Positions 6,611 through 63,198 of a DNA stretch of 64,000 nt are shown here, in pieces. This DNA comes from an uncultured Eubacteriales bacterium (GTDB taxonomy: Bacteria > Bacillota > Clostridia > Oscillospirales > Acutalibacteraceae): contig CAYWFB010000001.1 of assembly GCA_964457415.1 (NCBI GenBank), positions 215-64,214 on the forward strand, read 5' to 3'. The notes beneath the pieces were generated by a model that was not told the origin of the DNA, searched no databases, and was given only the letters and a program-made list of their open reading frames with translations. The translations under genes and the position numbers were made by a program. Position 1 is the stretch's first letter; the number at the start of each line of letters is the position of its first letter.

Positions 6611-6647
6611 AAAGCACCCGAGTTTAAAAACTTGGGTGCTTTTCCGT
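6611..6647 (+). terminator. rho-independent terminator
   Basis: Stem aaagcacccgag / cttgggtgcttt with T-rich tail. Confidence 0.7.
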
Positions 6648-6692
6648 TTAGATGTGAAAGAGAAAGATATTAAAATGACAAAATCAAATTGA

Positions 6693-6935
6693 TTATGCTA
6701 CTGTTGAGTTTTTTACGCGTGTGTGATTCTGTGAGTTATACGCTCTTAAATGCTCGCCACGAGCCACTGCCTTTTTGTGATTTCTGATACGGATTGCACG
6801 ACGGATATTGCCTACTACAATTCTTTTAACATTCTGCTCAAAAGCGATAACCTTTTCTTCGTGCATAAAGCCATATATGAGAAGAATTGAAACTGCGAGT
6901 TCTATTAAAGTTGTGATTGCAAATGTTGCTGACAT
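6693..6935 (-). CDS. 80-aa membrane protein with basic tail, apparently SOS (LexA)-regulated
   Basis: GGAGG RBS 8 nt before the ATG. N-terminal TM segment FAITTLIELAVSILLIYGF. Promoter flanked by Cheo boxes (next feature). Confidence 0.65.
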   Translation of the reverse strand: MSATFAITTLIELAVSILLIYGFMHEEKVIAFEQNVKRIVVGNIRRAIRIRNHKKAVARGEHLRAYNSQNHTRVKNSTVA

Positions 6936-6988
6936 AAAATCTACCTCCGAATGAGTTAATATTTTTATTTTCGTTACCGAGCAAACTT

Positions 6989-7052
6989 GAACAAATGTTC
7001 TTTACAAATCTAATTATATCCATTTTTTTGCAAAAGTCAATACAAATGTTCG
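6989..7052 (-). promoter_or_regulatory. promoter bracketed by two LexA/Cheo-type boxes
   Basis: On the minus strand: CGAACATTTGTA (7052-7041) abuts TTGACT (7040-7035). A 16-nt spacer follows, then TATAAT (7018-7013), then GAACATTTGTTC (7000-6989), a perfect GAAC-N4-GTTC core. Confidence 0.65.
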
Positions 7053-7258
7053 TAATGTTTTGCATTTTCAGTCCGTTTTTACGGACACAAAATTATTAAT
7101 TTTTACCGATATTTCCTTTTGTAATTAAATAATAACACAACATATTGTGGTTGTCAATATAAATTAACACAAAATATTTGATTTTTGAGTATTTTTCGAC
7201 TATTCAGATAAATTTTACGGTTTTTTATTTTTGTTCGGTAAAATATGGGGAATATTTA

Positions 7259-7368
7259 GCCTTCCCCCAACGAGGGGAAGGTGGCACGAGCAACGCGAGT
7301 GACAGAAGGGGGGCTTTTCAGATACCCCCTCAGTCGCTTCGTGACAGCTCCCCCTCAAGTGTGGAGCC
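7259..7368 (+). repeat. GC-rich three-hairpin repeat element, copy A
   Basis: gccttccccc..gaggggaagg / gggggg..ccccc / gctcc..ggagc. Related to 38162-38272 and 34208-34264. The track ORF 7178-7441 is read through this repeat. Confidence 0.75.
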
Positions 7369-7507
7369 TAATTTCACAAGTCATCAAAACAAAATCAAAA
7401 ATAATCAAAAAATATTATTTTACCTATTTATTATTTTATAAAAATAGTGTAGAATATTAAGGATAATGGGAATTTATGTTTAATTGTATGTAAATCGAGG
7501 TAAAAAA

Positions 7508-8779: not shown

Positions 8780-8791
8780 GGATTTTCTGAT

Positions 8792-9220
8792 ATGAGATTA
8801 TATAACAAAGATGTTAACGCGGATAGGTTAAGTCCGCTGACACTTGCATTCACGGGTGACGCAGTATTTTCGCTGTTTGTCCGTGAAATGTTAGTGTGTG
8901 ATGCCAACAGACCCGTTGGCGAGTTACATAGGCTTTCGGTTCAATCGGTTAAGGCTTCGGCTCAGGCGGCGGCAATGAGAAAAATTATGCCCCTGCTCAC
9001 CGAGAAAGAGACAGAGGTATTCAAACGTGGCAGAAATGCTCACACCTCTCACACTCCGAAGAACCAGAGCGGATGTGACTATCATTATGCAACGGGCTTT
9101 GAGGCACTTATTGGATATTTGTATTTAAAAGACGAAAAAGAACGCCTTAATTTCTTGCTTAATGAGGTCATTAACTGTCTTGGGGATGACCAGAGTGACA
9201 AGGTTAAAAAGGCTGACTGA
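8792..9220 (+). CDS. mrnC: Mini-ribonuclease 3
   Basis: LAFTGDAVFSLFVRE...YATGFEALIGYLYL, typical Mini-III motifs. Confidence 0.85.
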   Translation: MRLYNKDVNADRLSPLTLAFTGDAVFSLFVREMLVCDANRPVGELHRLSVQSVKASAQAAAMRKIMPLLTEKETEVFKRGRNAHTSHTPKNQSGCDYHYATGFEALIGYLYLKDEKERLNFLLNEVINCLGDDQSDKVKKAD

Positions 9221-10058
9221 AATTAAGGAATTCGCTATTGATACGCTGATTTTTATAATCGGCGGTGTGCTTTGTTCCATTGATGTGAACTGCTTTACGG
9301 CGAGAAATCACATTCTTGACGGTGGATTTACGGGGCTTGCAATAATTCTCAATTATCTTTTCAACACACCAATCGGCACGGTAATTTTTATTATGAACAT
9401 TCCCCTTTTCGTCATAGCTTTTCGCAAATTGGGCACAAAATTTGTGTTCCGCACAGTATGGGCAACCTTTATTATGTCACTTCTCATTGATGTGGGCACA
9501 ATTCTGCCTATCTACAAAAACGATTTGTTGCTTTGCTCACTTTTCGGCGGAGCGCTTTCGGGAATAGGCTTGGGAATTATCTTTGTGCGAAACGCCACAA
9601 CCGGCGGAATTGATATAATTGCAAAACTTATTCAGATAAAACATCCGCAGATTTCAATCGGCAGAACCTTTCTGATTTTCGATTTTTCGGTGGTACTCTT
9701 GGGCGGAATAATCTACCGCAATGTTGAGTCAATGCTCTACGCGGCGGTGGTAATATTCGTAAGCGCACAGGTGATTGACTATATTATTTACGGCGTGAAC
9801 AAGGGCTCAATGATTATGGTAATCACCGATAACGGCAACGAAATCCGTCAGATGATATTAAACGAATTCAACCGCGGTGTTACGGTGCTTGACGGTCGTG
9901 GCGGATATTCGGGCACAGAAAAGAACGTGCTTATCTGCGCCTGCCACAACAATCAAACGATGAAATTTATTAAGAAAATAAAATCAGCCGACGAAAATGC
10001 TTTTTTCATTGTGACACAATCAAAGCAAATTCTCGGCAATGGTTTCAAAAATATGTAG
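9186..10058 (+). CDS. YitT-family membrane protein (DUF2179 C-terminal domain)
   Basis: Polytopic N-terminal part plus [15 protein letters not shown]...FFIV C-terminal domain. The start is uncertain; M9 of the track ORF was chosen. Confidence 0.75.
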
Positions 10059-10066
10059 AGGTAACT

Positions 10067-11875
10067 ATGGCTAAGAAAGAAAACATCAGAAATTTTTCAA
10101 TTATTGCTCACATTGACCACGGTAAGTCTACCCTTGCTGACAGACTTTTAGAGCTTACAGAAACTGTTGCAAAGCGCGATATGACAGAGCAATTACTTGA
10201 TAATATGGATTTGGAGCGCGAGCGCGGAATTACAATCAAGGCTCACGCGGTAAAGCTTAACTACAAGGCAAACGACGGTGAGGAATACGAGCTTAACTTA
10301 ATCGACACCCCGGGTCATGTGGACTTTAACTACGAGGTTTCACGTTCTCTTGCGGCTTGCGAGGGTGCGGTGCTTATAATTGACGCGTCACAGGGCGTTG
10401 AGGCACAGACACTTGCCAATACATATTTAGCTCTTGACCACGATTTAGAGCTTGTACCCGTAATCAATAAAATTGACTTGCCCGCCGCTGACCCCGACCG
10501 CGTTGCAAACGAGGTTGAAGAGGTTATAGGGCTCCCCTGCGACGAGGCTCCCCGAGTTTCAGCAAAGACAGGCGAAAATGTGGGCGCGGTGCTTGAGAGT
10601 ATTGTTTCACTTGTTCCCCCACCTGAAAATAATGACGATAAGCCACTTCGTGCACTTGTTTTTGACTCGGTTTATGACAGCTACAAGGGTGTTATTGTTT
10701 ATGTTCGTATTGTTGACGGCACTATCCGGCCCGGCGACACAATGCGTATGATGGCAACAGGTGCAGAATTCAATGTTGTTGAGGTTGGTTATATGCGACC
10801 CAACGCTATGGAGCCTGCAAAGGAGCTTTCATCGGGCGAGGTTGGATATATTACCGCATCAATCAAGACAGTTAGTGATGCGCGAGTTGGTGACACTGTT
10901 ACAACTGCTGAAAATCCCGCAAGCGAGGCTCTGGCAGGCTACCGCAAGGTTAATCCAATGGTATTCTGCGGTGTTTATCCCGCTGACGGTGCTGATTATG
11001 AAAACTTGCGTGAAGCTCTTGAAAAATTGCAGTTAAATGACGCGGCACTCTCTTTCGAGCCCGAAACCTCGGGTGCATTGGGATTCGGTTTCCGTTGCGG
11101 TTTCTTAGGTCTTTTACACCTTGAAATTATTCAGGAAAGACTTGAACGTGAATACAATCTTGACCTTGTTACCACAATTCCAAGCGTTATTTATAAGGTG
11201 CACCTTACAAACGGCGAAATTATTGAAATTGACAACCCAAGTCATTATCCCGACCCAGCAAATATTGATTATTGCGAAGAACCAACTGTTGAGGCACATA
11301 TTTATGCTCCACCCGAATATATCGGCTCAATTATGAATCTTTGTCAGGACAGACGCGGTGTTTATGTGAACACCACTCACCTCGCCTCTGACCGTGTTGA
11401 TTTGCACTATATTTTGCCACTTAACGAAATTATTTATGACTTTTTCGATGTTCTCAAATCGAGAACACGCGGATATGCCTCATTCGACTATGAAATGAGT
11501 GATTATCAACGTTCAAGCATAATAAAACTTGACGTACTTCTCAACGGTGACATTATTGACGCACTTTCGTTTATGATTCACAGCGAAAAGGCTTACGCCA
11601 AGGCTCGCAGAATCGCCGAAAAGCTCAAAGATAACATTCCGCGTCAGATGTTTGAAATCCCTATTCAGATGGCTATCGGTGGCAAGGTTATTGCCCGCGA
11701 AACCGTTAAAGCTATGAGAAAAGACGTTCTTGCGAAGTGCTACGGCGGTGACATCACCCGTAAAAAGAAATTGCTTGAAAAACAGAAGGAAGGTAAAAAG
11801 CGCATGCGCCACTTCGGTACTGTTGAAGTACCCCAAGAGGCATTTATGGCTGTGCTCAAACTCGATGATGAATAA
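10067..11875 (+). CDS. lepA: translation elongation factor 4
   Basis: [35 protein letters not shown], and the characteristic LepA C-terminus. Confidence 0.97.
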
Positions 11876-12350
11876 AGAGATTTTTGAAAAATTAGCAGAA
11901 TTAGAAATTGAATATAAAAAAATCGAGCACCCCGCCGTTTTCACAATGGAAGAAATCGCAGAATATGATTTACATTCACACGGTCATATTCCGAAAAATC
12001 TTGTTCTCCGTGATGTTAAGGGCACCCGAAATATGCTTGTTGTTCTTCACGGTGATAAGCGTGCAGATTTGCGACTTATCCGTGACGAAATCGACTCAAC
12101 AAAGTTGAGCTTTGCCTCTGACCAAAGACTTGAGAAATATTTAAAAGTTGAAAAAGGCTCGGTGTCCCCTTTTGGTGTGATTTATGATACTGAAAGAGAG
12201 CTTGAAATCTATTTTGACGCAGATTTAAAGAACGAGGAAATTGTGGGTTGCCACCCCAACGACAACCACGCAACAGTATTTTTAAAATTCACAGATTTGA
12301 AAAAATATGTTGAGGCCTGCGGTCACAGAATTACATTTATTAAAGTATGA
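11865..12350 (+). CDS. YbaK/ProX-type prolyl-tRNA-synthetase-associated (aminoacyl-tRNA editing) domain protein
   Basis: [16 protein letters not shown]...KNLVLRD...GSVSPFG. Start taken at M46 of the track ORF, because the first 45 codons overlap the lepA 3' end. Confidence 0.7.
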
Positions 12351-13456
12351 AAAATATAGGATTATATTTACACATTCCTTTTTGCAAATCGAAATGTCCA
12401 TACTGTGATTTCTATTCATTTTCTGGCAAAGAAAGCCAAAAAGACGAATATGTGACAGCTTTACAGAGCAAAATTTTGTCAAGTATTTCTACTTTACAGA
12501 GCGATTGTAATTGTAAAGGCGATGCACTTTACATAGGTGGCGGAACTCCGTCAGTCTTGGGAGCAAAAAGGCTCCAGAAGCTTGTAAATACGTGCAATTC
12601 GGGATTTTTAACTGACGACGCAGAAATCACTGTTGAGTGCAATCCTTACGGACTCCAAGAGGATTTTTTCAAAGTTTTGCGTGATTGTGGCGTAAATAGA
12701 ATCTCAATGGGACTGCAATCCGCTAATGACCAAGAAAGACGGATTTTGGGAAGATTATCAGACCGAAAGCAAGTTGAAAATGCGGTGAAGTCTGCCCAAA
12801 ATGCAGGGTTTGAAAACATAACTCTTGATGTTATGCTTGGTGTTCCCGAGCAAACAGAAAAAAGTCTTAATGAAACTCTTGATTTCTGCATTTCTCTTGG
12901 TGTGCCACACATAAGTGCTTACATATTGAAGCTTGAAGAAAATACACATTTCTATAAAAATCGTGAGAAATATAATTTCCCCGACGATGATATGACGGCG
13001 GATTTGTATTTACAGATGTGCGAAACCCTTGAAAATCACGGCATAATGCAATATGAGATTTCAAATTTTGCGAAAAAAGGATTTGAAAGCAAACACAATC
13101 TCAAATATTGGCATTGTGAGGAATATTTAGGGCTTGGGCCTTCGGCACATTCATTTTTGAACGGCAAAAGGTTTTATTATGACCGAGATTTTAACGCGTT
13201 TTTGAATGCAAACTCCCCTATTCACGACGGTGACGGCGGAGATTTCACAGAATTCGCAATGCTTGCTCTGCGATTGACAGAAGGTCTTTGCGAAAACAAA
13301 GTTCTTGAGCGCTTTGGACATTCAATTCCAAATGCAATTTATGAAAAATCAAAAATCTTCATTGATAATGGGTATATGACCATTGACGAAAAAGGTTTGG
13401 CATTGACACGCAAAGGATTTTTATTATCAAACAACATTTTAGCAGAAATTTTGTAA
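12347..13456 (+). CDS. hemW: radical SAM heme chaperone HemW (HemN-like, oxygen-independent coproporphyrinogen oxidase family)
   Basis: LYLHIPFCKSKCPYCDF and GGGTPS. Conserved lepA-hemW synteny. Confidence 0.9.
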   Translation: MKNIGLYLHIPFCKSKCPYCDFYSFSGKESQKDEYVTALQSKILSSISTLQSDCNCKGDALYIGGGTPSVLGAKRLQKLVNTCNSGFLTDDAEITVECNPYGLQEDFFKVLRDCGVNRISMGLQSANDQERRILGRLSDRKQVENAVKSAQNAGFENITLDVMLGVPEQTEKSLNETLDFCISLGVPHISAYILKLEENTHFYKNREKYNFPDDDMTADLYLQMCETLENHGIMQYEISNFAKKGFESKHNLKYWHCEEYLGLGPSAHSFLNGKRFYYDRDFNAFLNANSPIHDGDGGDFTEFAMLALRLTEGLCENKVLERFGHSIPNAIYEKSKIFIDNGYMTIDEKGLALTRKGFLLSNNILAEIL

Positions 13457-47342: not shown

Positions 47343-47371
47343 TTGACAAATCAAAAATTTCCCTCTACAAT
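47343..47371 (+). promoter_or_regulatory. near-consensus sigma-A promoter of the toxin-immunity pair
   Basis: TTGACA (47343-47348), 17-nt spacer, TACAAT (47366-47371). Confidence 0.65.
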
Positions 47372-47414
47372 AATTTTCAGAACATTTGTTCTGCTACTTG
47401 AATGGAGGAATTTA

Positions 47415-47879
47415 ATGAATATAAATGAATGGAAAATTGTAGAGCCACCATTACATGAGAACTGTCGTTGTAAAATCGAACCAATGGAAGCCATTTTTGT
47501 AGGCGGAGCAACAAAAAATGGTGAAGCCGGTGCTGACTTTTGGTTGAAACATTTCAATAAATTACCGGATTATTATGTGACAGAAAGTGAAGCTGTTTCT
47601 ATGGGGTGGAGAAGAGGTAAATCACCTGTGAAATATTTGCCAGGAAAAATGCTAACAATGGGAATATATAATAATTCTAATGAACACTTACCACAAGCAG
47701 AAGGTCGTATATGGTACGAAGCGGATATAAATTATTATGAAGGCAAAAGAAATAAGCATAGGATTCTGTGGTCAAATGATGGATTAATATTTGTAACATA
47801 CGACCATTATGCGACTTTTTATGAAATTATAGGAGAAAATTATGGAGAAGAAAAAAATCATTACTTTAGACTTAACTGA
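47415..47879 (+). CDS. barnase-family ribonuclease toxin preceded by the terminal motif of a phage MuF (head-morphogenesis) domain
   Basis: PPLHENCRCKI (MuF C-terminal signature), then LPDYYVTESEAVSMGW...GRIWYEADINYYEGKRNKHRILWSNDGLIFVTYDHYATFYEI. This is collinear with barnase LPDNYITKSEAQALGW...GRTWREADINY...RILYSSDWLIYKTTDHYQTF. ATG 47415 follows GGAGG. Confidence 0.8.
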   Translation: MNINEWKIVEPPLHENCRCKIEPMEAIFVGGATKNGEAGADFWLKHFNKLPDYYVTESEAVSMGWRRGKSPVKYLPGKMLTMGIYNNSNEHLPQAEGRIWYEADINYYEGKRNKHRILWSNDGLIFVTYDHYATFYEIIGENYGEEKNHYFRLN

Positions 47880-48135
47880 TTGCAAATATTTAGGTGAAAT
47901 ACACGAGAGAATACAAGTTGCCTTTGATTTTCCAGAATGGTATGGAGCAAATTGGGATGCATTTTGGGATTTGTTGCGAAGCGAATGTGATGCAGATAAA
48001 TTGGAAATAATAGGAATTGATACGTTGTCTGAAAAATTTGATGAACACATTAAAATGATGATAATTATGCTTGATAAGTTTAAAGATAATTGCATAAAGT
48101 ATAATGATTATTTCGATTATGAAATTATCAATTAA
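47842..48135 (+). CDS. barstar-family immunity protein
   Basis: KIITLDLTDCKYLGEIHERIQVAFDFPEWYGANWDAFWDLL is a typical barstar N-terminus. Overlaps the toxin 3' end by 38 nt. Confidence 0.8.
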   Translation: MEKKKIITLDLTDCKYLGEIHERIQVAFDFPEWYGANWDAFWDLLRSECDADKLEIIGIDTLSEKFDEHIKMMIIMLDKFKDNCIKYNDYFDYEIIN

Positions 48136-48404: not shown

Positions 48405-49451
48405 ATGAGAACTTTTAACTACTCCAAAATTAAAGAGCAAAAATGGGATTCTGACATTCTCGGCTTGATTGCTGCTATTTATAAAGAGGCAGGAAAGCAG
48501 GAATTGTATCTCAAGCAAAAGCCCGAAAAACTTGAAAAGCTTGTTGAGATTGCAAAGGTGCAAAGTACAGAGGCTTCTAACGCCATTGAAGGTATCGTTA
48601 CAACAAGCACTCGTGTTAGGCAGTTAGTTGAAGAAAAGACTACTCCCAGAACTCGTGACGAGCAAGAAATCGCAGGTTATCGTGATGTATTGAATATAAT
48701 TCATGAAAGTTTTGATGCAATTCCGTTGACTCAGAATTATATACTTCAGCTTCACAAAATGTTATACAGCCATATGAACAACCCAATGGCAGGTAAAACC
48801 AAGAGTGTGCAGAATTATATAAGTTCCACATATCCTGATGGTCATACTGAAACGCTATTCACTCCACTTTCACCTTTTGAAACACCTGAAGCACTTGATA
48901 AAATTTGTGAGGAGTTCAACAGAGTTATCGGCAATATGGAAGTTGAGCCATTGATTGCAATTCCGATTTTCATTCACGACTTCCTTTGCATCCATCCATT
49001 TAACGATGGCAATGGTAGAATGAGTCGTCTGCTTACCACATTACTCCTTTACAGAAGTGGTTTTCATGTTGGTAAGTATATTTCACTTGAAGCTAAAATA
49101 GCAAAAAATAAAGACCTTTACTATGATGCACTCAGCAAGGCACAAATTGGTTGGCACGAAGGGAATGAAGATAATGTTCCTTTCATCAAATACCTTCTTG
49201 GCACAATTCTTGCAGCATACAAGGATTTTGAAGAACGATTTAAGTTGATTGAGGAAAAACTGCCTGCAATTGAAATTGTGAGAAAAGCAACTCAGATTAA
49301 AATCGGGCGTTTTACCAAGCAGGATATTCGCGAACTCTGTCCTTCACTCAGTATAAGCACTCTCGAAGGTGCATTACGCAAAATGGTTGAATCCGGCGAA
49401 TTAAAGCGTGAAGGTAATGGTAAAAATACCTACTATTATCGATTGAGATAA
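48405..49451 (+). CDS. Fic-family protein (AMPylase-type) with N-terminal inhibitory helix motif and C-terminal wHTH-like region
   Basis: HPFNDGNGRMSRLL (HxFx[D/E]GNGRxxR). SNAIEG fits the [S/T]xxxE[G/N] auto-inhibition motif. AAGGAGGT RBS. Confidence 0.88.
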   Translation: MRTFNYSKIKEQKWDSDILGLIAAIYKEAGKQELYLKQKPEKLEKLVEIAKVQSTEASNAIEGIVTTSTRVRQLVEEKTTPRTRDEQEIAGYRDVLNIIHESFDAIPLTQNYILQLHKMLYSHMNNPMAGKTKSVQNYISSTYPDGHTETLFTPLSPFETPEALDKICEEFNRVIGNMEVEPLIAIPIFIHDFLCIHPFNDGNGRMSRLLTTLLLYRSGFHVGKYISLEAKIAKNKDLYYDALSKAQIGWHEGNEDNVPFIKYLLGTILAAYKDFEERFKLIEEKLPAIEIVRKATQIKIGRFTKQDIRELCPSLSISTLEGALRKMVESGELKREGNGKNTYYYRLR

Positions 49452-52535: not shown

Positions 52536-52847
52536 ATGTATAGATGGGAAACTGACAAAAAGACTTATTTAAGATTAAAAGAATGTTTGAACGAATTGCA
52601 CCCTGAAATCAAGATTGAATTGATTGCTTATGACGAAAACCTTGAAAAATTAGCATTTACTCAATCCGCACCTTGTGTAGTTAACTTGTATTTAACTAAA
52701 GAACAACGTAGAATTCTATTAGATGAACTTGAAATGATTGAAATGGATGCAATCGATATCAGTGATAAAAAATCTAATGAAAGATATGAAAAATACGGCT
52801 GGCTTTGGGCTGTTTTTTATGATTTAGAGGAAGAAAAATATGAGTAA
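52536..52847 (+). CDS. hypothetical acidic 103-aa protein
   Basis: ORF with AAAGGATGG RBS. No recognisable motif. Confidence 0.4.
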   Translation: MYRWETDKKTYLRLKECLNELHPEIKIELIAYDENLEKLAFTQSAPCVVNLYLTKEQRRILLDELEMIEMDAIDISDKKSNERYEKYGWLWAVFYDLEEEKYE

Positions 52848-53286
52848 AGGTTATGAAGCTATTTGCATTAAAGAAGCAGAAGATGAAAATATGGTGAATG
52901 CAGATTGCTCTACTCTTTGGGAATTCTGGGACGCTTGGCGTGGCACTAAAAACCACGCATGGAGTGGTGGACCACTTGTGATAATGAGTAAACATTTTGC
53001 AGGTATCACTCCCCTTTCACCAGGCTATGAAAAGGTTAAAATCGACCCTCAATACACCTTGTCTAACAGTATGAATTGTACTGTCCCAAGTGTAAAAGGG
53101 TTATTCACTCTGGATTATGAAAAGGTTTCAGATAATTACACTATCAACCTTACCCTCCCACAAGATGCGAATGCTGTTTTATATGTGCCAACCGACGCTA
53201 CAGTAAATATCAATTCAGAAACTTATTACCAAAACGGTAATTACATAAACACCGAAATCGGTAATGTGGAGATTGTGGAAAAGTAA
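52840..53286 (+). pseudogene. C-terminal remnant of a GH78 alpha-L-rhamnosidase-like gene
   Basis: STLWEFWDAW.GTKNHAWSGGPLVIMSKHFAGITPLSPGYEKVKIDPQ plus a beta-sandwich tail matches the last ~125 aa of bacterial rhamnosidases. The ~700-aa N-terminal part is absent. Confidence 0.55.
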
Positions 53287-53766: not shown

Positions 53767-54531
53767 ATGAACGGTTTATTTGTACGCGAAATAAGTATAA
53801 AATGCGATATACCACGCGGGAATTACATCAACAATCTTCCCGTGGTGGATTGGCTTAAAAGCAACTCTTTGGAATTCAACAAACCTGTGACTTTTATTGT
53901 AGGCGAAAACGGAATTGGCAAGTCAACACTTATTGAGGGGCTTGCGGTTGCTTTGGGCTTCAATGCCGAGGGCGGAAGTAAGAATTTCAACTTTTCAACC
54001 GAGAATTCACACTCAGATTTGCACGAATATTTAAGTGTCCGCAGAGGATTAAAGCAACCTCGTGACGGATTTTTCTTGCGTGCCGAGAGCTTTTACAATG
54101 TGGCATCCAACATTGACCAGATGGACAGAATGCCTGCCGCCGCTCCGCCTGTAATCGACAGCTACGGCGGTGTGTCACTCCACGCGCAATCCCATGGCGA
54201 AAGCTTTATCGCTCTCACCGAAAACCGATTTGGCGGAAACGGACTTTATATCCTTGACGAGCCTGAAGCCGCACTCTCTCCAATGCGAATCATGAGGCTT
54301 ATGTGCAATATCGACCACCTTGTAAAGCAAGGCTCACAGTTTATAATCTCAACCCATTCTCCAATCCTGATGACCTTCCCCGACGCCGATGTTTACGAAA
54401 TAACTCACGAGGGAATAAACCTCGTCCCCTACTCCCAAACCGAGCATTTCCAAATCACAAAACAATTCCTCAACAACCCCGAACGAATGCATAAATATTT
54501 GTTTGAGGAGCAAATACCTATTTTAAAATAA
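53767..54531 (+). CDS. stand-alone ABC/SMC-like AAA ATPase (COG3910-type)
   Basis: Walker A GENGIGKST, signature-like SHGESF, Walker B LYILDEPEAALSP, H-loop STHSPIL. Confidence 0.85.
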   Translation: MNGLFVREISIKCDIPRGNYINNLPVVDWLKSNSLEFNKPVTFIVGENGIGKSTLIEGLAVALGFNAEGGSKNFNFSTENSHSDLHEYLSVRRGLKQPRDGFFLRAESFYNVASNIDQMDRMPAAAPPVIDSYGGVSLHAQSHGESFIALTENRFGGNGLYILDEPEAALSPMRIMRLMCNIDHLVKQGSQFIISTHSPILMTFPDADVYEITHEGINLVPYSQTEHFQITKQFLNNPERMHKYLFEEQIPILK

Positions 54532-54635: not shown

Positions 54636-55478
54636 TCAATAATCAGCCCTTCCCCAATCTACATTACAGTGTCCATCTTCAATATCAAAGGTTATTGTAC
54701 CTTCATTTCTTGTTGTCAGAACATACCTGTAATTACCATCCAATTTTGCTCCTCTGCCTTTATAAAGGCGTGCTGTATCGTTCTGTGTTTCATGTTCAAT
54801 AGATTTATCTGATACAACGGTAAGATATGGATTAACACAATTGAAAAAATCCTGACAAAACTCGCCGGTTCTTCCATGATGAGGCGCCAATAAAACTGTT
54901 GCATTTTTTACTTTTGAGCAAATATCTTCATGATTTTCATCCATCATTCTTTGAAGAATTGATTTCGGATTATCTCCTGTTAAAACGAATTTATATCTAT
55001 ATGCATTAACTACTACTATGCTTGAAAAAGTATTTAAATCTTGCTTGGTGGTCCACTGTGATTTAGGTAATATAAACTCAAAAGAGACGCCCCCATTTGC
55101 CGTTTTTTCTGTTGGCAATTCATTCATATTTACGGGCTGATTATATGAAGCATTCATCTTGTTAGCGATGTCTGCTATATTTCTATGTATATATGTATTT
55201 TGTGTCGGTATAATGTTGAATGCTTCTGTGGGTCTATTTAGAACTCTTGGGTGGAGTTCTGCATATAATTTAGGCAAATCATAAATATGGTCTTCGTGAG
55301 GGTGTGTGATAATTAGCTCATCAACAGCACCACTATAACCGTTAAAATATTTTCTTTTAATATGTTCTACAATACTTTTATCAGTTTTGCTACCGACATC
55401 TACCAATATATGTTTATTATTTGGTGTAATAATATGACAACAACTACCATGGTCTACATCATAAAAAATTATTTTCAT
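54636..55478 (-). CDS. ComEC/Rec2-type MBL-fold metallo-hydrolase (280 aa)
   Basis: FYDVDHGSCCHI...LVDVG, ITHPHEDHIYDL (HxHxDH), LTGD, LLAPHHGR. Confidence 0.8.
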   Translation of the reverse strand: MKIIFYDVDHGSCCHIITPNNKHILVDVGSKTDKSIVEHIKRKYFNGYSGAVDELIITHPHEDHIYDLPKLYAELHPRVLNRPTEAFNIIPTQNTYIHRNIADIANKMNASYNQPVNMNELPTEKTANGGVSFEFILPKSQWTTKQDLNTFSSIVVVNAYRYKFVLTGDNPKSILQRMMDENHEDICSKVKNATVLLAPHHGRTGEFCQDFFNCVNPYLTVVSDKSIEHETQNDTARLYKGRGAKLDGNYRYVLTTRNEGTITFDIEDGHCNVDWGRADY

Positions 55479-55529
55479 AAAACTATACTCCTTTAAATAT
55501 TAATAAGTAAACATACCTTTCATAATTTT

Positions 55530-57010
55530 CTATATACTTCCTATTGGCACATCTATTCTATCTTGTGCTACACAAACTCCATTTTTCACAAGATAGCATT
55601 CTACAAAGTGCTCACCATAAAAATCTGTGTGTTCTTTGTGATGTGTGTTACCGAGCTTAATCTGCCCTCGAATACAGTCTCTTTCTTCTGCAACTACTCC
55701 CACATTTCTGACTTTCCAATAGATATCGTATGGGCACGGACAAGTTGTGCTTTCTATGAAAAAGTCTAGTGATTTATGCCTTCTTAAATATCCCCTGCTT
55801 TTAAGAAAATCAATTAAAAAGAAATCTCTCCAACCATTTTGTGATACTTTACAATTTATTCTTAATCTATATTGTTCTCTTACAGGAAACATATCTGTTA
55901 TAAACTGCTCCGTATTTCTAAAAGAAGGACGACAATAACTACTCTTTTCAACAACGGTGCTATCTTCGTTAGCAAATTCGTTTAATGTAATGCCATTATC
56001 ATCAACAGTAAATACAATTGGAGAAGGCTTGCTATCTTTCTTCCGTTTATGTTCCATCGTCACCAAAAACGATACATCTGATGCAGTGTATTTTTTATAT
56101 GCATGTTTAGCAATCATGTGTGGCGGAGAAGTATCTTCCGTTATCTCCTTACAAGAAGCAACCATATAGCCATTTTCTTGAGCTTGTTCTAATAACCACT
56201 GTACATTTTCAGTTGGTGTGATAATTCTAGTATCTTTTTCATCTTTTTCGTTTAACCCAGTATGGCTACAATGATGTGGTATATCATAAATATCCCATAC
56301 AAGTTTATCTTCATTTTTATTCTCTTTTGTTATGTCAACTATCTTATCTGAAACTGCATATTGAGTGTCACCCGTAATTAAAATGTTCGCTTCGTTATCT
56401 CCATAATACAAACGGACTTGCATCACAATTGATGGGTCGTTCTTGTCTTGCACTTCTTCGCTATCATCTGAAAAAGGAGCATGGACAAAAATCTCTATTT
56501 CATCTTCAGCTCCAGATATTGATAATGTATCTCCTGCATGGACAATCAAATGTTTAACATCATCATACTTTATTTCTTCTTTATCAATCCATTTTTTAAT
56601 TCTTCAGGTTCTCCAAATATTCTCACACCATAGCCCGACTTAAATCTATGTCTTGCTTCTTGTCTTATTATTTTCGCATCAGACCCATTCTCTAAGTTTG
56701 TATCTAATAAGAATGCAGCAGATATCCACAATTCTTCTATCTTCGCTCTTGAATCTGACTGATATTCTTTTGCATAATCCAAGTAAAAGAATTTGCTGGC
56801 ACCTTTTGTGTGGTCTTCATGTGCATGCGAAAACATAACAACCTGAAATTCTTGGATTTCTGATAAATCTTTTTTTATATCATAACGCTCATCATCTTCT
56901 GCGCCTTCATACACATCAGCAAAATCAAATAGTAAGCATTTCCCATTATCTAGTTCCAACAAACTTGTTTCTGCGTTACCAATTGGGAAAAATGTCAACT
57001 TATGTGCCAT
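55530..57010 (-). pseudogene. MBL-fold metallo-hydrolase fused to an AGS-C-like C-terminal domain, split by a 1-nt frameshift in an A6/T6 run (track ORFs 56570-57010 and 55530-56549)
   Basis: The N-terminal ORF has FFPIGNAETSLL and FSHAHEDHTKG. The C-terminal ORF continues the same fold (ILITGD, IPHHCSH). The two frames overlap around T6 at 56592-56597. One extra A gives ...EPEELKKWIDKEEIKYDDVKHLIVHAGD... Confidence 0.75.
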
Positions 57011-57025
57011 AATTTACTCCTCCTA

Positions 57026-57559
57026 TTAACTTTTTTCCATATAGTTTTTAATTCGTTTATTTATGTAATTTGTTTGCTTTTTATAACTAACTACAAAAAC
57101 TATCATTAACACTAAAAAAGCCACTACAACTAACCAATCATTACTAATTTTATTAATTAAAATATCATGTATTTTCCAATCATATAACTTTGCAATCAGT
57201 AATGAAAAACCAATAGAAATTGTTGTTCTGTACAAATTATTTGTTTCATTTAACACTTCAATAAATGGTTCGGCTTTTGATGCCGCAATGTAATCCTTGT
57301 AGTCACTTTTTTTAATAAACGGACCGATTGCCTTTATTTTTACTTTTGTTAAAAGAGGTTCTATAATTAGTGAACCTATTCTACTTATTATCATTCCAAC
57401 AAAATAATATATAAAAAGATTTTCTAACAAGCTGCCATTAGCAATTGTAAAACGAGTAGTTTTATCAAGAATATAGCAAAACGCTATTCCGGGCAACAAA
57501 TTATTGAATATGTTATATGATGAAATCTTTTCAGATACACTTTTAACAATATCTTCCAT
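57026..57559 (-). CDS. small integral membrane protein (about 4 TM segments)
   Basis: 177 aa. Hydrophobic segments IFNNLLPGIAFCYIL, LFIYYFVGMIISRIGSLII, TTISIGFSLLIAKLY and WLVVVAFLVLMIVFVVSY. Gaps of 15 and 18 nt to the flanking MBL genes. Confidence 0.6.
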   Translation of the reverse strand: MEDIVKSVSEKISSYNIFNNLLPGIAFCYILDKTTRFTIANGSLLENLFIYYFVGMIISRIGSLIIEPLLTKVKIKAIGPFIKKSDYKDYIAASKAEPFIEVLNETNNLYRTTISIGFSLLIAKLYDWKIHDILINKISNDWLVVVAFLVLMIVFVVSYKKQTNYINKRIKNYMEKS

Positions 57560-57577
57560 ACAAAAACCTCCGCGTTT

Positions 57578-58714
57578 TTAATAATTAACGACTAAGTGCA
57601 CTGCACTTCCACAATCTTCTGTCACAATAAATGGATAACGATTATTAAACATCAAATTTTTAATTACTTTAGAATGTGGATGACGATATTTATTACTCCT
57701 ACCTACAGAAATAACAAAAAATGAATTTAGTGTTGAAAAACAACTATTATAATTATGGCTAGAACCATGATGTGGAATTTGCAAACAACCTATTTGATTC
57801 CATTGTTTCAAATACATATCTTTTAAATCCTCAAACTGTTGTTTTTTTGAAGCATCATAATCACCCGTATATAAACAACCGGAAGGTTTAATACAATATT
57901 TACAATAATGTCTGCAAAAGTTATTAGGCTGTGCAACCTGATATCCACCGTGTTGGATTGGACCTGAAAAAAGTGTCATCGAGTTCGTGTTATGGTCTCC
58001 GTCAATTTCTTGATAAGCTTTTTTTATTTTTTTCTTATTATCATTATTTTCATTCCATAAATTTTGTAAATTTCTCAATCCTTCAAATTCAAATCCAAAA
58101 GCAATTTCTAATTTTTCTTTTAATAATTCTGTTCTTTCCTTGTTCTTAAAATTAAATGGAATATAACACCAATCCTTTAACAATCCTATTTTTGTTCTTT
58201 CAATAACGCCATTCACATTTTCTCCAGAATAAATAGGTTTAGCACGCAACTGATTGGAGACGTCATATCTAACTTCCTCTCCATAAGGAATAATTGGGAA
58301 TAACATCGGCCGCGACTCGCCCAAATCGATGCTGTCTAATGCATGCCTTGGATTATCAACAAACAAATTCACAAAAGAATCTTTTTTAACCCCATTTATA
58401 AGATTACTAACTAACACAATATTCTTTTCATCTTCATTCATCAAGGGAAAGAAAATATTTTTAACATTACAATATTTCAACAAATATTTTAATCCGTTGA
58501 TATGGTCGTTATGCAAATGAGAAATAAAAACAGCATGAATAATTTCATCCTTATCAAATATTGCTCTAATTTCTGCTTCCACCCATTTAACATCCGTAGA
58601 CGAACCACAATCGTAAACAATATTAACCTTTTTATTATTAGATAACAGACCATCAAATTGTTCGCAATAAAAGGCACCTTGTCCGACAGGCAAAAAACTT
58701 CTTATCATTCTCAT
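57578..58714 (-). CDS. ComEC/Rec2-type MBL-fold metallo-hydrolase (378 aa) with inserted Cys cluster
   Basis: FLPVGQGAFY, FISHLHNDHINGL, IPHHGSSHN, and the insert CRHYCKYCIKPSGC. Start at M7 of the track ORF (GAAGGTG RBS). Confidence 0.8.
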   Translation of the reverse strand: MRMIRSFLPVGQGAFYCEQFDGLLSNNKKVNIVYDCGSSTDVKWVEAEIRAIFDKDEIIHAVFISHLHNDHINGLKYLLKYCNVKNIFFPLMNEDEKNIVLVSNLINGVKKDSFVNLFVDNPRHALDSIDLGESRPMLFPIIPYGEEVRYDVSNQLRAKPIYSGENVNGVIERTKIGLLKDWCYIPFNFKNKERTELLKEKLEIAFGFEFEGLRNLQNLWNENNDNKKKIKKAYQEIDGDHNTNSMTLFSGPIQHGGYQVAQPNNFCRHYCKYCIKPSGCLYTGDYDASKKQQFEDLKDMYLKQWNQIGCLQIPHHGSSHNYNSCFSTLNSFFVISVGRSNKYRHPHSKVIKNLMFNNRYPFIVTEDCGSAVHLVVNY

Positions 58715-58928
58715 AGTACAACACCTTCTCATATTCTATAAATTTATAAAATCCTAATATAATATAAATCGAAATTAAGATTCCTTTTGTGACAAAATAT
58801 TACAAACTTTTTCATCATAAAGCAAACAAAACACTTTACCTTTACGTTCAAATTACATTTATAAACAAATTGGTGCTTACCATTGTTTATAGCGGTAGAA
58901 TTACTGCTATACCAAGTGGATATAAAAA

Positions 58929-58961
58929 TTAAAGGTGTTAGCCAATGGTTAACACCTTTAA
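58929..58961 (-). terminator. long hairpin downstream of the helicase gene
   Basis: ttaaaggtgtta gccaatgg(t) taacacctttaa, followed on the minus strand by tttttata. Confidence 0.6.
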
Positions 58962-59140
58962 TTCATTGATTCAATTATAAGTCTTGTGCTGAATTTGAAG
59001 TCTTGCAGAAAACTTTCCCTTTCCGCGATACTGATAAGGTCTTCATTACAGATAAACATTTTCAAGCATTTCTATATATTTGTACTACTTTCGCAGCACA
59101 AATGTATATCACACATTTTTGCATAAGTTTAGCTAATCTC

Positions 59141-61615
59141 TCAACTTTTAATATTTCTTATATACCTGCAACCATAGTTTCTGTAATTTGAACACCCAAA
59201 AAACTCACCGTATGGACCAGAACGTTTTACTAATCGACCACCACACAAAGGACATTCATATTGTTCTTTCTTCATACTATCACCATACCTCAACTGCAGT
59301 TCTTTTACAAAATCAGATTCCTGCTTATCAACAGTCACCAAAATTGCTTTTTCTTTAGCCCTCGTCATTGCTACATAAAACAATCGGCGTTCCTCAGCAA
59401 ATGGATACTGGTCACAGTTATCAAGAAGCAATTCAAGAATTGCCGCCTCCTGAACTTTACTCGGAAATCCCATTCGAGATTTTTTATTATTAATAATAAA
59501 CACGTAATCTGCCTGCAACCCCTTAGATTTATGTGCTGTAATAAAGTTCATTTTTAGGTCATGACGATTTTTATAAACAACATCAATCAAGCCACTAATG
59601 TTATTATATTTGCAATCAAACAAACCATTTTCACTAAGTAATTTACTATCAAAAGTGTACCGTCCAATAAAGAATACTGAACTCCCTTTGGGTAAATCAT
59701 CTAATCTTGAGGCCATAAACTCTATAGCAAATTTATCTGTATAACCAGTTACCTGACCTAATACAAAACTTTTTGAATCAATATTTCCTTTGATTGATTT
59801 TTTTATCTGAATGGGATTTTGCATTATAAAATTGCCACTTATTTCAATAAGTTGCTGACTGAAACGATATGTAGTTTCTATTTTGCTTAATTCCGTTGCA
59901 CCCCAATATTTTTCAAAGTTCAGTATATATCCTATATCACTACCTGCAAAACGATATATGCTCTGCCAGTCGTCTCCAACACAGAACAAATCAAAATCTT
60001 GTGAATCACGCAATGCTTTAAGTAATGAATACCTCGCCTTTGAAATATCCTGGTATTCATCGACAATTACACATTTATATGGACTGTAGTATTTCTTTTC
60101 ATTGACATATTGCGTTGCAAGATTAATCATATCATTAAAATCAATCTCGTTATTTTGTTTTAAATAATCACAATAAGCATTGAAAATAGGCTCAATTAAA
60201 TTAAGTATTGTAAAATTGCTTTGGGCGTTGCTATTACCAACATTTAATTGTCTAACAGTACTAATCGTATATCCATTACTTTTAATAAGATTTATCACTG
60301 TCTCAAATAATTCAATAATACCATCAAGAATCGAAGGCTCCGTTGCAAGTTGAGACCATAATTCCTGTGCAGATTTCGGGTTTAATTCAACACCATTTTC
60401 TTTGAGTTTTTTCTTAAGATTATCTAGCAAAGTCCCCTCAAACTTTTCATAAGCATAACACTCTATCATTGTCGTGTTATTTGCCTCATGTAATTCTCTC
60501 TTCCAATTCATTGACTCTTGATAAACCTGAGTTGCGGTCTTACCTTTTGAGCCGTTGAAATATGCTGGAACCTCACCATTTTTGTTTATACCAAAATATT
60601 CAATATAAATATTATACTTTGGAAGGTGAAAATCTGGTTGATATTGCGTATTCTCTTTTGTGCGAGTATCTATCCCATAAGGGCATTCATAAATATACTC
60701 CACTCCGTTTTGAGCAAGAAAATTTGCAATATCCATTTCACCATAACTTTTTACTATTTCATTACTTACGGTCGTAGGTGGATTCAGTTTTAAGTAATCT
60801 TCGTATTCTGCACGTGTCTGAAAGTCAAATTCGGATTTTGCAACTACTCGATTATAGAGCAAATATAAGCTCAAAAGTTGAAGATATGCATCTGACTCCA
60901 TTAAATCAGATATTTTTTCTTTTATGAACTTACGCAAATTAAGTTGAGTTATCTTAGGTGCAATACCATTAAATTCCGTAATAATATTCAGTCCCAATTT
61001 GTGAAATGTAGAAGCTGCAATTTCATATCCTGTTTCTTTATTTATTCTCTGACACATTTCACTTGCAGAAGCGTTTGTGAAAGATAAGACAAGAATATCT
61101 TCTGGCTTATATTGCTTTGTTTTCAATAAAAATTTAATTTTTCCAACAACAGTAGTTGTTTTACCAGTTCCTGCCCCGGCGATTACCAAATGGTTATGTG
61201 CATCTTTCAGGATGCATGTCATTTGTTGCTTATCCAACCTGTGTCCTTCAACATCACCTATGAGCGTATACGCATTTTGAATTTTTAATTCTGCAATTCG
61301 ATTATTGTGAGTTTGTATTCGATGTTTTAATTGTTTTAGTGCATCTTGAATGGCTATCCTTTGAGTTAAAAAAGAATTGAAATTATTTGCCTTTTTAATT
61401 GTTTTTATATTAAATAATGAAATTTCATTTAACAATTCCGAATATTGCAATTGCCATTCTTCAGCTTTAGAGGGTTCAATAAAGTCATCATTATTAAACA
61501 AGCTTGAAATTTCTTTTAAAGCAAAAGAAATCCGTGCGATATAACTATCACACAAATCATTTCGTTCTTTTATTTTTGCTTTGTGTCGTTCAATCAGTTT
61601 TTTAATAAAACCCAT
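59141..61615 (-). CDS. helicase IV/UvrD-family SF1 helicase with nuclease-like insert and C-terminal topoisomerase-type zinc ribbon
   Basis: EGHRLDKQQ...VIAGAGTGKTTT, VIVDEYQD, CVGDDWQSIYRFAGS, TAHKSKGLQADYV, FYVAMTRAKE. Insert SYGEMDIANFLAQNGVEYIYE...YQPDFHL..YNIYIEYFG. C-terminal CPLCGG..(16)..CSNY..YGC. Confidence 0.85.
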   Translation of the reverse strand: MGFIKKLIERHKAKIKERNDLCDSYIARISFALKEISSLFNNDDFIEPSKAEEWQLQYSELLNEISLFNIKTIKKANNFNSFLTQRIAIQDALKQLKHRIQTHNNRIAELKIQNAYTLIGDVEGHRLDKQQMTCILKDAHNHLVIAGAGTGKTTTVVGKIKFLLKTKQYKPEDILVLSFTNASASEMCQRINKETGYEIAASTFHKLGLNIITEFNGIAPKITQLNLRKFIKEKISDLMESDAYLQLLSLYLLYNRVVAKSEFDFQTRAEYEDYLKLNPPTTVSNEIVKSYGEMDIANFLAQNGVEYIYECPYGIDTRTKENTQYQPDFHLPKYNIYIEYFGINKNGEVPAYFNGSKGKTATQVYQESMNWKRELHEANNTTMIECYAYEKFEGTLLDNLKKKLKENGVELNPKSAQELWSQLATEPSILDGIIELFETVINLIKSNGYTISTVRQLNVGNSNAQSNFTILNLIEPIFNAYCDYLKQNNEIDFNDMINLATQYVNEKKYYSPYKCVIVDEYQDISKARYSLLKALRDSQDFDLFCVGDDWQSIYRFAGSDIGYILNFEKYWGATELSKIETTYRFSQQLIEISGNFIMQNPIQIKKSIKGNIDSKSFVLGQVTGYTDKFAIEFMASRLDDLPKGSSVFFIGRYTFDSKLLSENGLFDCKYNNISGLIDVVYKNRHDLKMNFITAHKSKGLQADYVFIINNKKSRMGFPSKVQEAAILELLLDNCDQYPFAEERRLFYVAMTRAKEKAILVTVDKQESDFVKELQLRYGDSMKKEQYECPLCGGRLVKRSGPYGEFFGCSNYRNYGCRYIRNIKS

Positions 61616-62181: not shown

Positions 62182-63090
62182 TTATTTTTTCTTAAAACTT
62201 TCCCTTTTTAATGTTCTTTCATCTATAATCCTACGCTTTACAGCTTCACAGATACTACTAAGGTCTGGCATTAAACGAAACGTATTGTATCCTAATGTGT
62301 CAAGATACTGTATAAGTTCATCACGCAAATCCTTATGAATTCTAATCACATGAGAGTTGTTTTGAAGGATGCGCAAATGCTCATCTTTATCTAATGTGTA
62401 AGGGAACATAAATAATCCTTGTTGCATAATAATTCTCTGATTTGATTGGTTCGGATCAATAAATAAAATTGCATGATTCTTGATTTTTTTCTCTTTGTCA
62501 TTAGAATTTTCAATTGTATCAGTAAACCCATCAAGAGACCATATACTCCTATGTAATTTATTATCTCCAAACAAGTCAGTTACACTATCAATACATTGAC
62601 TTGCTTTTTTTGACAGTGAATCTGTTTTCGTCCATTTCATGTTATGTATTTCATCATTCAAAGGAATAGACGAAACACATAAATTTTCTTTTAAAGAAGC
62701 ATATCTTACATAATAATATGTTTTATCATCTTTTTCTTTATATTTGGGTCCTTTAGGCATATATAATGCAAAAGAAAGGGCAATAAACGGATTTCGCGTG
62801 AAGTCGAGCAATCTCGTAGGCAAGCCAAAATGCTGAGCATATGACATGAAGTCTATGGGCGTATTTGCGCGAAAATAATTGCTACCATACTTTTCAAAAT
62901 CATGAAGCAACTCATTTTCAACATCTGCATAGTCTTTATCACGAATAACATTAGGAAACAACTCATCTTGCTTACCGTATCCTCTAAATACATAATCGCC
63001 ATTACGAGCTAAAGCATTTAGTCTATCTATTACACCTTCAATACCGTCTTGTGTCTCTATAGTATTCAAATCAATATTATCTACCTTCAT
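62182..63090 (-). CDS. FRG-domain protein
   Basis: YVFRGYGKQDELFPN...YAQHFGLPTRLLDFTRNPFIALSFAL is the FRG signature. Start at M12 of the track ORF (GGGGGGA RBS). Confidence 0.8.
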   Translation of the reverse strand: MKVDNIDLNTIETQDGIEGVIDRLNALARNGDYVFRGYGKQDELFPNVIRDKDYADVENELLHDFEKYGSNYFRANTPIDFMSYAQHFGLPTRLLDFTRNPFIALSFALYMPKGPKYKEKDDKTYYYVRYASLKENLCVSSIPLNDEIHNMKWTKTDSLSKKASQCIDSVTDLFGDNKLHRSIWSLDGFTDTIENSNDKEKKIKNHAILFIDPNQSNQRIIMQQGLFMFPYTLDKDEHLRILQNNSHVIRIHKDLRDELIQYLDTLGYNTFRLMPDLSSICEAVKRRIIDERTLKRESFKKK

Positions 63091-63198
63091 CTTTAATCCC
63101 CCCGTATTTTTGCATAAAAGCATATCAATCAGTTCCTACACTCCGCAAATCATTTTTACCAAATATCTTGTATCAAAGCAATAAATAAAACCTTTTTA

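Follow-up and report, generated by a model that had tools for sequence, protein, structure and literature searches.

An AGS-C-fused 6A-MBL-family enzyme in a four-gene cluster with a membrane protein and two further MBL-fold hydrolases in an uncultured Acutalibacteraceae bacterium

The window analysed here is a 64,000-nucleotide stretch of contig CAYWFB010000001.1 from an uncultured Eubacteriales bacterium of the family Acutalibacteraceae. It carries a cluster of four genes on the minus strand, one of which encodes an enzyme of the 6A-MBL anti-phage family with a C-terminal AGS-C domain. In order of reading, the genes encode MBL-384, a ComEC-type hydrolase of the metallo-beta-lactamase (MBL) fold (57578-58732); TM-177, an all-helical transmembrane (TM) protein of the PDC-M48A family (57026-57559); the 6A-MBL-family enzyme, which is frameshifted and is referred to below as the middle gene (55530-57010); and MBL-280, another ComEC-type MBL-fold hydrolase, which belongs to the PDC-M48B family (54636-55478). 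The open reading frames (ORFs) of MBL-384, TM-177 and MBL-280 comprise 384 (from the first ATG), 177 and 280 aa, respectively; for MBL-384, homologues and the NCBI gene call make the ATG at 58714 the more likely start, giving 378 aa. Four co-oriented minus-strand genes lying 15-51 nt apart had been proposed from the DNA letters alone, and the ORFs confirmed this, with intergenic gaps of 18, 15 and 51 nt and a GGAGG-like (Shine-Dalgarno-like) ribosome-binding site at each. Because the gaps on either side of the middle gene are only 15 nt and 51 nt, the genes are likely to be co-transcribed. The block was also correctly described as AT-rich: the G+C content of the four genes was 0.26-0.35, compared with 0.39 across the whole window, and the low-GC stretch spanned from about 55 to 63 kb. 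A promoter and terminator scan gave matches no better than those of shuffled controls, no Rfam family was found in the window, and no flanking repeats marking an insertion were found. The cluster had no DNA counterpart in the phage and plasmid collections, except for the AGS-C-coding end.

The protein encoded by the middle gene after repair of the frameshift matched the NCBIfam equivalog model NF058524 (6A-MBL_enzyme) with 322.5 bits over residues 7-340, against a cut-off of 220 bits (E 3.2e-96). The C-terminus, which the original prediction had called a sensor-like domain, is the Ig-like AGS-C domain, encoded at 55542-55919 (Pfam AGS_C, PF18134; 9.6e-45). PADLOC models of CBASS (cyclic oligonucleotide-based anti-phage signalling system) cyclases matched the protein over their C-termini only, with E-values down to 4.5e-54. 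An AlphaFold2 model was made for P0001, an intact homologue of the middle protein, with a predicted local distance difference test score (pLDDT) of 86.9. In Foldseek, the best PDB match of this model was the beta-lactamase-like domain of ComEC (9ic4; E 1.2e-13, target-normalised TM-score 0.73), and the model also matched the AGS-C domain of EcPycC, a Pycsar cyclase (9ard_A). Residues H62, H64, D66, H67, H177, D215, H246 and H247 were invariant among 6A-MBL enzymes, and H298 was conserved in at least 90% of the sequences. The alignment showed that the binuclear-metal ligands were kept across enzymes with and without AGS-C.

In the window the middle gene is split into two ORFs, at 56570-57010 (146 aa) and 55530-56549 (339 aa). 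The first frame ends at 56570 and the second is open from 56603. When the A6 run at 56592-56597 was lengthened by one A, a 493-aa protein resulted that was 99.6% identical to the intact database protein P0001, with two residues differing, and alignment with an intact copy from a relative (locus L007) placed the gap at 56597. The frameshift, already suspected in the original prediction, is therefore a 1-nt deletion in this homopolymer. Only four differences separated the middle gene from the L007 copy, namely the frameshift, P217Q, L221S and one synonymous change; both substitutions fell at conserved positions, L221S in a nearly invariant column. As three of the four differences are damaging, they point to inactivation of the window's middle gene. 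Judged from the sequence, the AGS-C branch is probably inactive in the window, and MBL-384, TM-177 and MBL-280 are still intact. The AGS-C gene was also disrupted at locus L044.

Homologues of the middle protein came in two sizes: proteins of about 490 aa that carry AGS-C (P0001-P0009), and numerous smaller ones of about 362 aa that lack it, here called short forms. The MBL part of the middle gene was 46-70% identical to the 362-aa enzymes of canonical loci. One genome per species was scanned and neighbours were classed by BLAST and by hidden Markov models (HMMs) built in this analysis, which gave 36 loci. An E2-E1-JAB protein of about 720-750 aa was encoded directly after all short forms with downstream sequence (28/28); of the other two short forms, one lay on a contig that ends inside the gene and one in a disrupted locus, where a fragment of the E2-E1-JAB gene remains. 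The E2-E1-JAB protein of locus L008 matched NF058523 (cap2_3) with 491 bits. All six AGS-C forms of the 36-genome set, from metagenome-assembled genomes of Acutalibacteraceae and other Clostridia, were without the E2-E1-JAB protein and carried an MBL and a membrane protein, TM-228, upstream. The AGS-C loci L001-L007 and L129-L131 were likewise without it. An HMM made from the single L008 E2-E1-JAB sequence found no Cap2_3 in the whole 64-kb window, patatin and TM-228 were also absent from the whole window, and Pfam domains for E1, E2 and JAB were absent from the operon and its neighbours. The short forms end in APRAG followed by 0-5 residues (15/15 sequences of alignment A1), and this tail is their presumed conjugation site. 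In the AGS-C forms, the window protein included, a linker and the AGS-C domain stand exactly where the APRAG tail would be.

AGS-C is an Ig-like domain of about 18 kDa that is found on about 40% of type I CBASS CD-NTases and is absent from other CBASS types. It also occurs on PycC cyclases, including the Pycsar-2 subclade, whose exclusive partners are TM effectors, and it has been proposed to modify phage sensing. An exhaustive HMMER search found 67 full-length relatives of the window AGS-C (an earlier word-indexed search gave short fragments only): 59 of them matched SMODS, 22 matched the DncV-like NTase family, and one other carried 6A-MBL. The window AGS-C was 52-59% identical to AGS-C of CD-NTases, compared with 50% and 37% to those of the other two MBL lineages, and the DNA of its coding end resembled the 3' ends of genes for DncV-like CD-NTases carried by Firmicute plasmids (70-80% identity). 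A neighbour-joining tree built on the MBL domain split the AGS-C forms into three separate lineages among the Cap2_3-type enzymes. The swap appears to have arisen at least three times, a count for which a better phylogeny is needed. The 6A-MBL enzyme thus obeys the rule of CD-NTases, Cap2/Cap3 or AGS-C and never both, through repeated domain exchange with them, and its two forms mirror the split between type II and type I CBASS.

TM-177 matched the PADLOC model PDLC04670 (PDC-M48A) at 1e-56, with residues 6-175 aligned to positions 2-162 of the 164 in the profile, and matched no other PADLOC model. No Pfam family was found for it, its NCBIfam match was partial and below threshold, and its PHROG group (phrog_11864) is listed with function unknown. 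It had 847 homologues. Its AlphaFold2 model (pLDDT 88.5) was all-helical with six helices, four of them long; Foldseek gave no match in the PDB or BFVD, no sequence relatives were found in the PDB, and neither Pfam nor Foldseek recognised a ligand-binding domain. The third gene in the 30 canonical loci encoded patatin (Pfam PF01734), TM-228 and a TM-177-family protein in 12, 6 and 5 cases, respectively; most of the seven loci with no recognised partner had no space for one, as three start at a contig end, one lies on a short contig and one is disrupted. Minimal AGS-C loci consisted of TM-228 and MBL-AGS-C (L129) or of MBL-AGS-C and a 2-TM protein (L131). TM-228 matched no Pfam, PADLOC or NCBIfam model. 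TM-177 and TM-228 were not homologous by profile-profile comparison (hhalign probability 1%) and were alike in layout, with hydrophobic segments near both ends around a conserved central stretch. By analogy with the effectors of CBASS, the two are apparently interchangeable analogues.

In metagenomic loci of the TM-177 family, a ComEC-type MBL was adjacent in 74/80, on both sides in 5 of these loci, and the family abutted 6A-MBL and Cap2_3 with gaps of about 10-60 nt in 6/80. The 6A-MBL enzyme was the only MBL next to TM-177 in two metagenomic (L100, L116) and two genomic loci (L023, L025), where TM-177 was in turn its sole partner. The partner of TM-177 is almost always an MBL-fold enzyme, either plain or 6A-MBL. 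TM-177 relatives were found on 21 prophage-like contigs of IMG/VR, 19 of which carried an MBL, often convergent; of 2.9 million viral contigs, not one carried a 6A-MBL enzyme. At the proteobacterial locus L045 (Sphingosinicella; 7947-13357), genes for 6A-MBL, Cap2_3, patatin and a PDC-M48B-like MBL lie in a row, showing that the extra plain MBL goes with patatin-type systems too and not only with TM-177. At loci L008-L012 (about 6256-11274), a canonical TM-228, 6A-MBL and Cap2_3 array lies on an element resembling a plasmid or an integrative and conjugative element (ICE), which carries ParA/ParB, RepA_N and a serine recombinase and has IS110 fragments just upstream. The canonical system is thus mobile in gut Firmicutes.

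The three hydrolases of the window had been predicted to be ComEC-type MBLs with shared motifs, and all of these were present: the F.P/D.G/D.G N-terminus, the motif-1 Asp, HxHxDH, TGD and PHH were intact in each. The HxHxDH versions of MBL-384, the middle gene and MBL-280 were HLHNDH, HAHEDH and HPHEDH, respectively. In MBL-384 the motifs lie at D41, 72 (HLHNDH), 289 (TGD) and 320 (PHH), and in MBL-280 at 59 (HPHEDH), 167 (TGD) and 199 (PHH). Mutual similarity among the three was confined to the surroundings of the motifs (local alignments of 42-65 residues), and BLASTP at E<=1e-3 found no pair among them. These results agree with the earlier view that they are highly diverged, and the three are old paralogues.

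MBL-384 matched Pfam Lactamase_B (2.4e-8) and, below cut-off, the NCBIfam models ComEC_Rec2 (4.2e-13) and Avs1a (2.8e-8). The PADLOC models LmuA, PDC-M48B, RTasMBL and Avs1a matched its N-terminal part only, the PDC-M48B model PDLC04676 weakly at 4.1e-12. Its orthologues were 90% identical in L007 and L132, and in L001, L013 and L014 an orthologue with 50% identity precedes the TM gene. MBL-280 matched the PADLOC model PDLC04675 (PDC-M48B) over its full length at 5.5e-38 and Pfam Lactamase_B at 6.3e-8, gave weak sequence matches to the ComEC MBL-domain structures 9ic4 and 30bt, and accompanied the MBL-AGS-C gene in L006 and L007. Both proteins were matched by the MBLb HMM built in this analysis. 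A PDC-M48B subtype matching PDLC04673 (MBL-303, L002 441-1352) has HPDEDH, with Asp in place of the second His of HxHxDH, and MBL-302 of locus L132 (7651-8559) was 73.5% identical to it. This subgroup may differ in metal binding or have altered catalysis.

The same locus was found in relatives, and the four-gene neighbourhood exists outside this genome, which the original prediction had left to be checked. An independent contig, L007, has the four genes in the same array, there with the middle gene unbroken, so that the arrangement is more than a chance one. DNA identity between the window and L007 was 99.6%, 93.2%, 95.7%, 99.7% and 99.9% for the 3' end of the upstream helicase gene, MBL-384, TM-177, the middle gene and MBL-280, respectively. 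This mosaic divergence suggests that the MBL-384/TM-177 pair was exchanged in one piece by a recent recombination event. Locus L132 is syntenic, with about 96% identity over the peptide deformylase gene, the helicase gene, MBL-385 and TM-182, and has a single MBL-302 of the PDC-M48B type in place of the window's MBL-AGS-C and MBL-280. Locus L006 carries MBL-AGS-C, MBL-280 and TM-171 in an order different from that of the window, with 85.6% DNA identity to the window over MBL-AGS-C and MBL-280. The site is a cassette-swapping defence hotspot at which MBL-AGS-C and MBL-280 move together.

In the gene order effector, enzyme and E1/E2/JAB protein, the canonical loci probably resemble type II CBASS operons. 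The 6A-MBL system is reportedly due to van den Berg et al. (2024, Cell Host Microbe 32:1427). In the passages of citing papers, a review among them, that deal with it, 6A-MBL is described as a validated anti-phage system of Pseudomonas aeruginosa that is active on jumbo phages and has ubiquitin-related elements, and it is placed beside type II CBASS and Pycsar among the pathways that rely on an E2-E1 fusion. Its NCBIfam components are the enzyme (NF058524) and cap2_3 (NF058523). The window enzyme is an equivalog-level member of this family with identical metal-site residues and the same kinds of adjacent partners. However, the window has neither a Cap2_3 gene nor the PRAG tail and has AGS-C fused instead, its operon has two extra ComEC-type MBL genes, and this copy is frameshifted. 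With type I CBASS and Pycsar-2 the cluster shares an AGS-C enzyme beside a small multi-TM protein, the lack of Cap2/Cap3 and the same either/or rule, whereas the window enzyme is an MBL-fold hydrolase in which Pfam finds no SMODS, NTase or cyclase domain. Since such a domain is absent, no known second messenger can be assumed.

The PADLOC-DB v2 candidate PDC-M48 is a computational candidate only, and the literature searched makes no mention of it. TM-177 corresponds to its A component and MBL-280 to its B component, and the pairing of a TM protein with an MBL is the same. In the window, however, the A and B genes are separated by the 6A-MBL-AGS-C gene and there are two B-like genes: MBL-280 lies one gene away from TM-177, and MBL-384 is directly adjacent but only a weak match to B. 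The claim that the cluster maps to no named system was therefore not upheld, as its components are named (NF058524 for the 6A-MBL enzyme, PDC-M48A and PDC-M48B). A ComEC-related MBL fold in defence is also known from the trypsin-MBL systems Avs1a and Avs2 and from HamMAB, and the Avs1a, LmuA and RTasMBL models gave weak matches to all three window MBLs. With the Avs1a model NF041809 the scores were 32.9 and 17.9 bits, where the cut-off is 420, and no protease or STAND gene lies nearby. In contrast to the Avs1a type, the window MBLs have no associated protease, STAND or helicase sensor, and their regulation would be through AGS-C and not through proteolysis. ComEC, which joins a membrane channel to an MBL nuclease, provided the structure closest to the middle protein (9ic4) and sequence matches to MBL-280. 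Yet the window proteins are stand-alone and soluble, lack the competence channel and the OB domain, and lie in another genomic context; the scores with the ComEC model TIGR00361, 48.3 and 40.2 bits, fell short of its cut-off of 190, with only the MBL part aligned. Other candidates were rejected. For Gabija, the helicase is GajB-like, but the ATPase of 254 aa has no Toprim match and its gene is on the opposite side of the operon. For Lamassu, DRT and AVAST, weak matches were restricted to the MBL domain. CBASS proper requires a CD-NTase, and there was none. AGS-C together with a metallo-beta-lactamase was not mentioned in the literature searched, nor was an AGS-C-fused architecture without Cap2_3 and with TM and MBL genes described there; that literature did not include Burroughs et al. 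2015 or the original publication on 6A-MBL. The architecture, that is the AGS-C fusion, the lack of Cap2_3 and the systematic link to a membrane partner, appears to be new.

We read the cluster, with a probability of about 0.5, as a "type I-like" variant of 6A-MBL within a TM and MBL module of the PDC-M48 type that would follow a logic like that of CBASS and Pycsar. Such a logic is suggested by the shared regulators, the shared effector types, the exchange of non-homologous effectors and the mutual exclusion of the regulators. That it is a defence-type module of sensor-bearing MBL, further MBLs and membrane protein, as proposed earlier, is supported by homology and context, because of the NCBIfam anti-phage and PADLOC matches, the modular swapping of partners and the variable slot. 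The accompanying claim that all three MBLs are nucleases is unproven, as it is backed only by what relatives do, namely ComEC and the Avs-type MBL dsDNase.

By analogy with type I CBASS and Pycsar-2, the 6A-MBL-family enzyme would be the regulated, infection-sensing component. In canonical systems the Cap2/Cap3-like E2-E1-JAB protein would control the enzyme through its C-terminal PRAG tail, and in the window variant the fused Ig-like AGS-C would replace tail and partner and would gate or target the enzyme on a phage cue. The active binuclear-metal MBL site is predicted to cut a phosphodiester, which would be DNA or a molecule derived from nucleotides. Cleavage, directly or via its product, would then trigger TM-177, which stands in the slot occupied elsewhere by patatin or TM-228, and TM-177 would damage the membrane and abort the infection. 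MBL-384 and MBL-280, as the usual kind of partner of TM-177, would probably act as parallel or back-up enzymes and are most likely DNases. A further step would be to regard ComEC-like MBLs as a third sensor-enzyme class of CBASS-like immunity beside CD-NTases and cNMP cyclases, since they use the same pair of regulators, Cap2/Cap3 or AGS-C, and have patatin or small TM proteins as neighbours; they would make a hydrolysis-derived nucleotide or oligonucleotide signal for these effectors, with the AGS-C form as its "type I" and PDC-M48 as its minimal version. This step is tentative, and we consider it rather unlikely.

Several points weigh against the type I-like reading. MBL-fold enzymes are hydrolases, and to our knowledge the production of an immune second messenger has been described for none of them. 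ComEC and the Avs-type MBL, the relatives that have been characterised, are DNases, which favours a role as direct effectors. TM-177 mostly occurs without any 6A-MBL enzyme, with the plain MBL in 74/80 loci as given above, and the syntenic relative L132 has no AGS-C gene altogether, so that the coupling of TM-177 and AGS-C is not obligatory. The patatin partners gave no match to the PADLOC models of CBASS phospholipase effectors. The frameshift in the middle gene could also be an assembly error.

The strongest alternative, which we nevertheless hold to be somewhat unlikely, is that the three MBLs are themselves Zn-dependent DNase effectors of the ComEC and Avs type, acting on phage or host DNA with no small-molecule relay. 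AGS-C or Cap2_3 would then license the nuclease, and the membrane protein would be an accessory that may hold or gather the nucleases at the membrane, the place of phage DNA entry, or may serve as a second effector of its own. This agrees with the ComEC nuclease domain as the best structural match of the 6A-MBL enzyme, with the matches of MBL-280 and MBL-384 to the ComEC and Avs1a models and with catalytic motifs that are all intact. Defence MBLs associated with proteases are Zn-dependent dsDNA nucleases once activated, ComEC itself couples a membrane channel to an MBL nuclease, and in nearly all loci TM-177 is accompanied by a plain MBL without a sensor domain. However, a membrane-directed partner in nearly every locus would be hard to explain if the MBL alone killed, and the exchange of this partner among non-homologous TM proteins and patatin is easier to reconcile with an effector slot than with a specific anchor. 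Elsewhere, Cap2/Cap3 and AGS-C go only with signal-generating enzymes and not with effectors, which also speaks against the direct-nuclease reading.

It seems improbable to us that two independent systems lie side by side here, in which case the shuffling of cassettes at a defence hotspot would have put a 6A-MBL-AGS-C gene, orphaned and decaying, next to a self-sufficient PDC-M48 module of MBL-384, TM-177 and perhaps MBL-280 with which it has no functional link. In more than 90% of loci the PDC-M48 pair occurs on its own, L132 has MBL-385, TM-182 and MBL-302 at the same site and no AGS-C gene, and the travel of MBL-AGS-C with MBL-280 as a cassette, the mosaic divergence from L007 (93-96% for MBL-384 and TM-177, 99.7-99.9% for the other two) and the broken AGS-C genes in the window and L044 would all be expected of such an arrangement. 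Against it, every other locus of the AGS-C type has its own TM partner immediately adjacent, and in the window, L007 and L006 the only TM candidate is the TM-177-family gene. TM-177 abuts 6A-MBL and Cap2_3 in 6/80 metagenomic and 5/30 genomic loci, far above chance for rare families, and four of these loci hold no other MBL. The 15-nt and 51-nt gaps, indicating co-transcription, point the same way. A function outside defence, either a housekeeping or DNA-uptake role related to ComEC or a mobile-element processing module, might be read from the ComEC-type similarity of the MBL domains, the TM-177 and MBL pairs on prophage-like contigs and the one canonical 6A-MBL locus on an ICE- or plasmid-like element, but is highly improbable given scores all below the ComEC cut-offs, the absence of its competence (TM) and OB domains, the patchy occurrence, the low G+C content and the exchange of cassettes involving FRG and GmrSD genes, the matches to an NCBIfam anti-phage equivalog and PADLOC models, the lack of 6A-MBL enzymes among the viral contigs and the lack of a phage or plasmid DNA counterpart of the region.

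The 6A-MBL enzyme swaps the same two regulators as the CD-NTases and Pycsar cyclases and keeps a membrane-directed partner. The type I-like reading would give 6A-MBL a testable model, with the MBL as the regulated upstream enzyme and the TM protein or patatin as the effector. The minimal AGS-C form, with two or three genes and no ubiquitin-like machinery, would be a simpler system for such a test. The orphan PADLOC candidate PDC-M48 is now tied to a validated system, and AGS-C is a portable sensor module that extends beyond nucleotide-synthesising enzymes, which bears on what AGS-C senses. For annotation, system finders that require cap2_3 will miss the AGS-C variant.

The original prediction placed the operon in an island with a toxin-immunity pair, Fic, an FRG protein and a UvrD-like helicase, and these neighbours were present: a barnase-like ribonuclease, a Fic protein, an FRG protein (PADLOC PDC-S15), the UvrD-like helicase and an AAA_21 ATPase. 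The helicase gene (59141-61615, minus strand) lies directly upstream of the operon and encodes 824 aa with a C-terminal Top1-type zinc ribbon; its best PADLOC matches were RTasHel and GajB. It adjoins the cluster in L007 and L132 too, and a NERD and zinc-ribbon protein holds this position in L006. The helicase is probably outside the system, because it is absent from other loci of the AGS-C type. The helicase gene and MBL-384 are 408 nt apart, and the spacer holds a near-perfect 31-nt inverted repeat (58914-58976; core AAGGTGTTAGCCA/TGGTTAACACCTT), which may be the terminator of the helicase gene or an operator of the operon.

The FRG-domain protein is encoded at 62182-63123 on the minus strand (PDC-S15, 4.4e-39), and in the syntenic L132 its slot is occupied by a GmrSD type IV restriction enzyme (L132 435-2552). 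This slot, adjoining peptide deformylase, looks like a hotspot for the exchange of defence genes. On the other side, convergent with the operon and at the same place in L132, a 254-aa SMC_N/AAA_21 ATPase is encoded at 53767-54531 on the plus strand; it gave weak matches to the mad3, AriA, GajA and PtuA ATPase models, and no nuclease (Toprim) domain was detected in it. Further away on the plus strand, the barnase-like ribonuclease (47343-47879; Pfam Ribonuclease, 6.6e-9) overlaps a small ORF (47842-48135) that may encode its inhibitor, and the pair is followed by the Fic-domain protein (48405-49451). A 148-aa ORF at 52840-53286 on the same strand matched only the C-terminal domain of bacterial alpha-L-rhamnosidase and is probably what remains of a gene, marking an old rearrangement where the variable region begins or ends.

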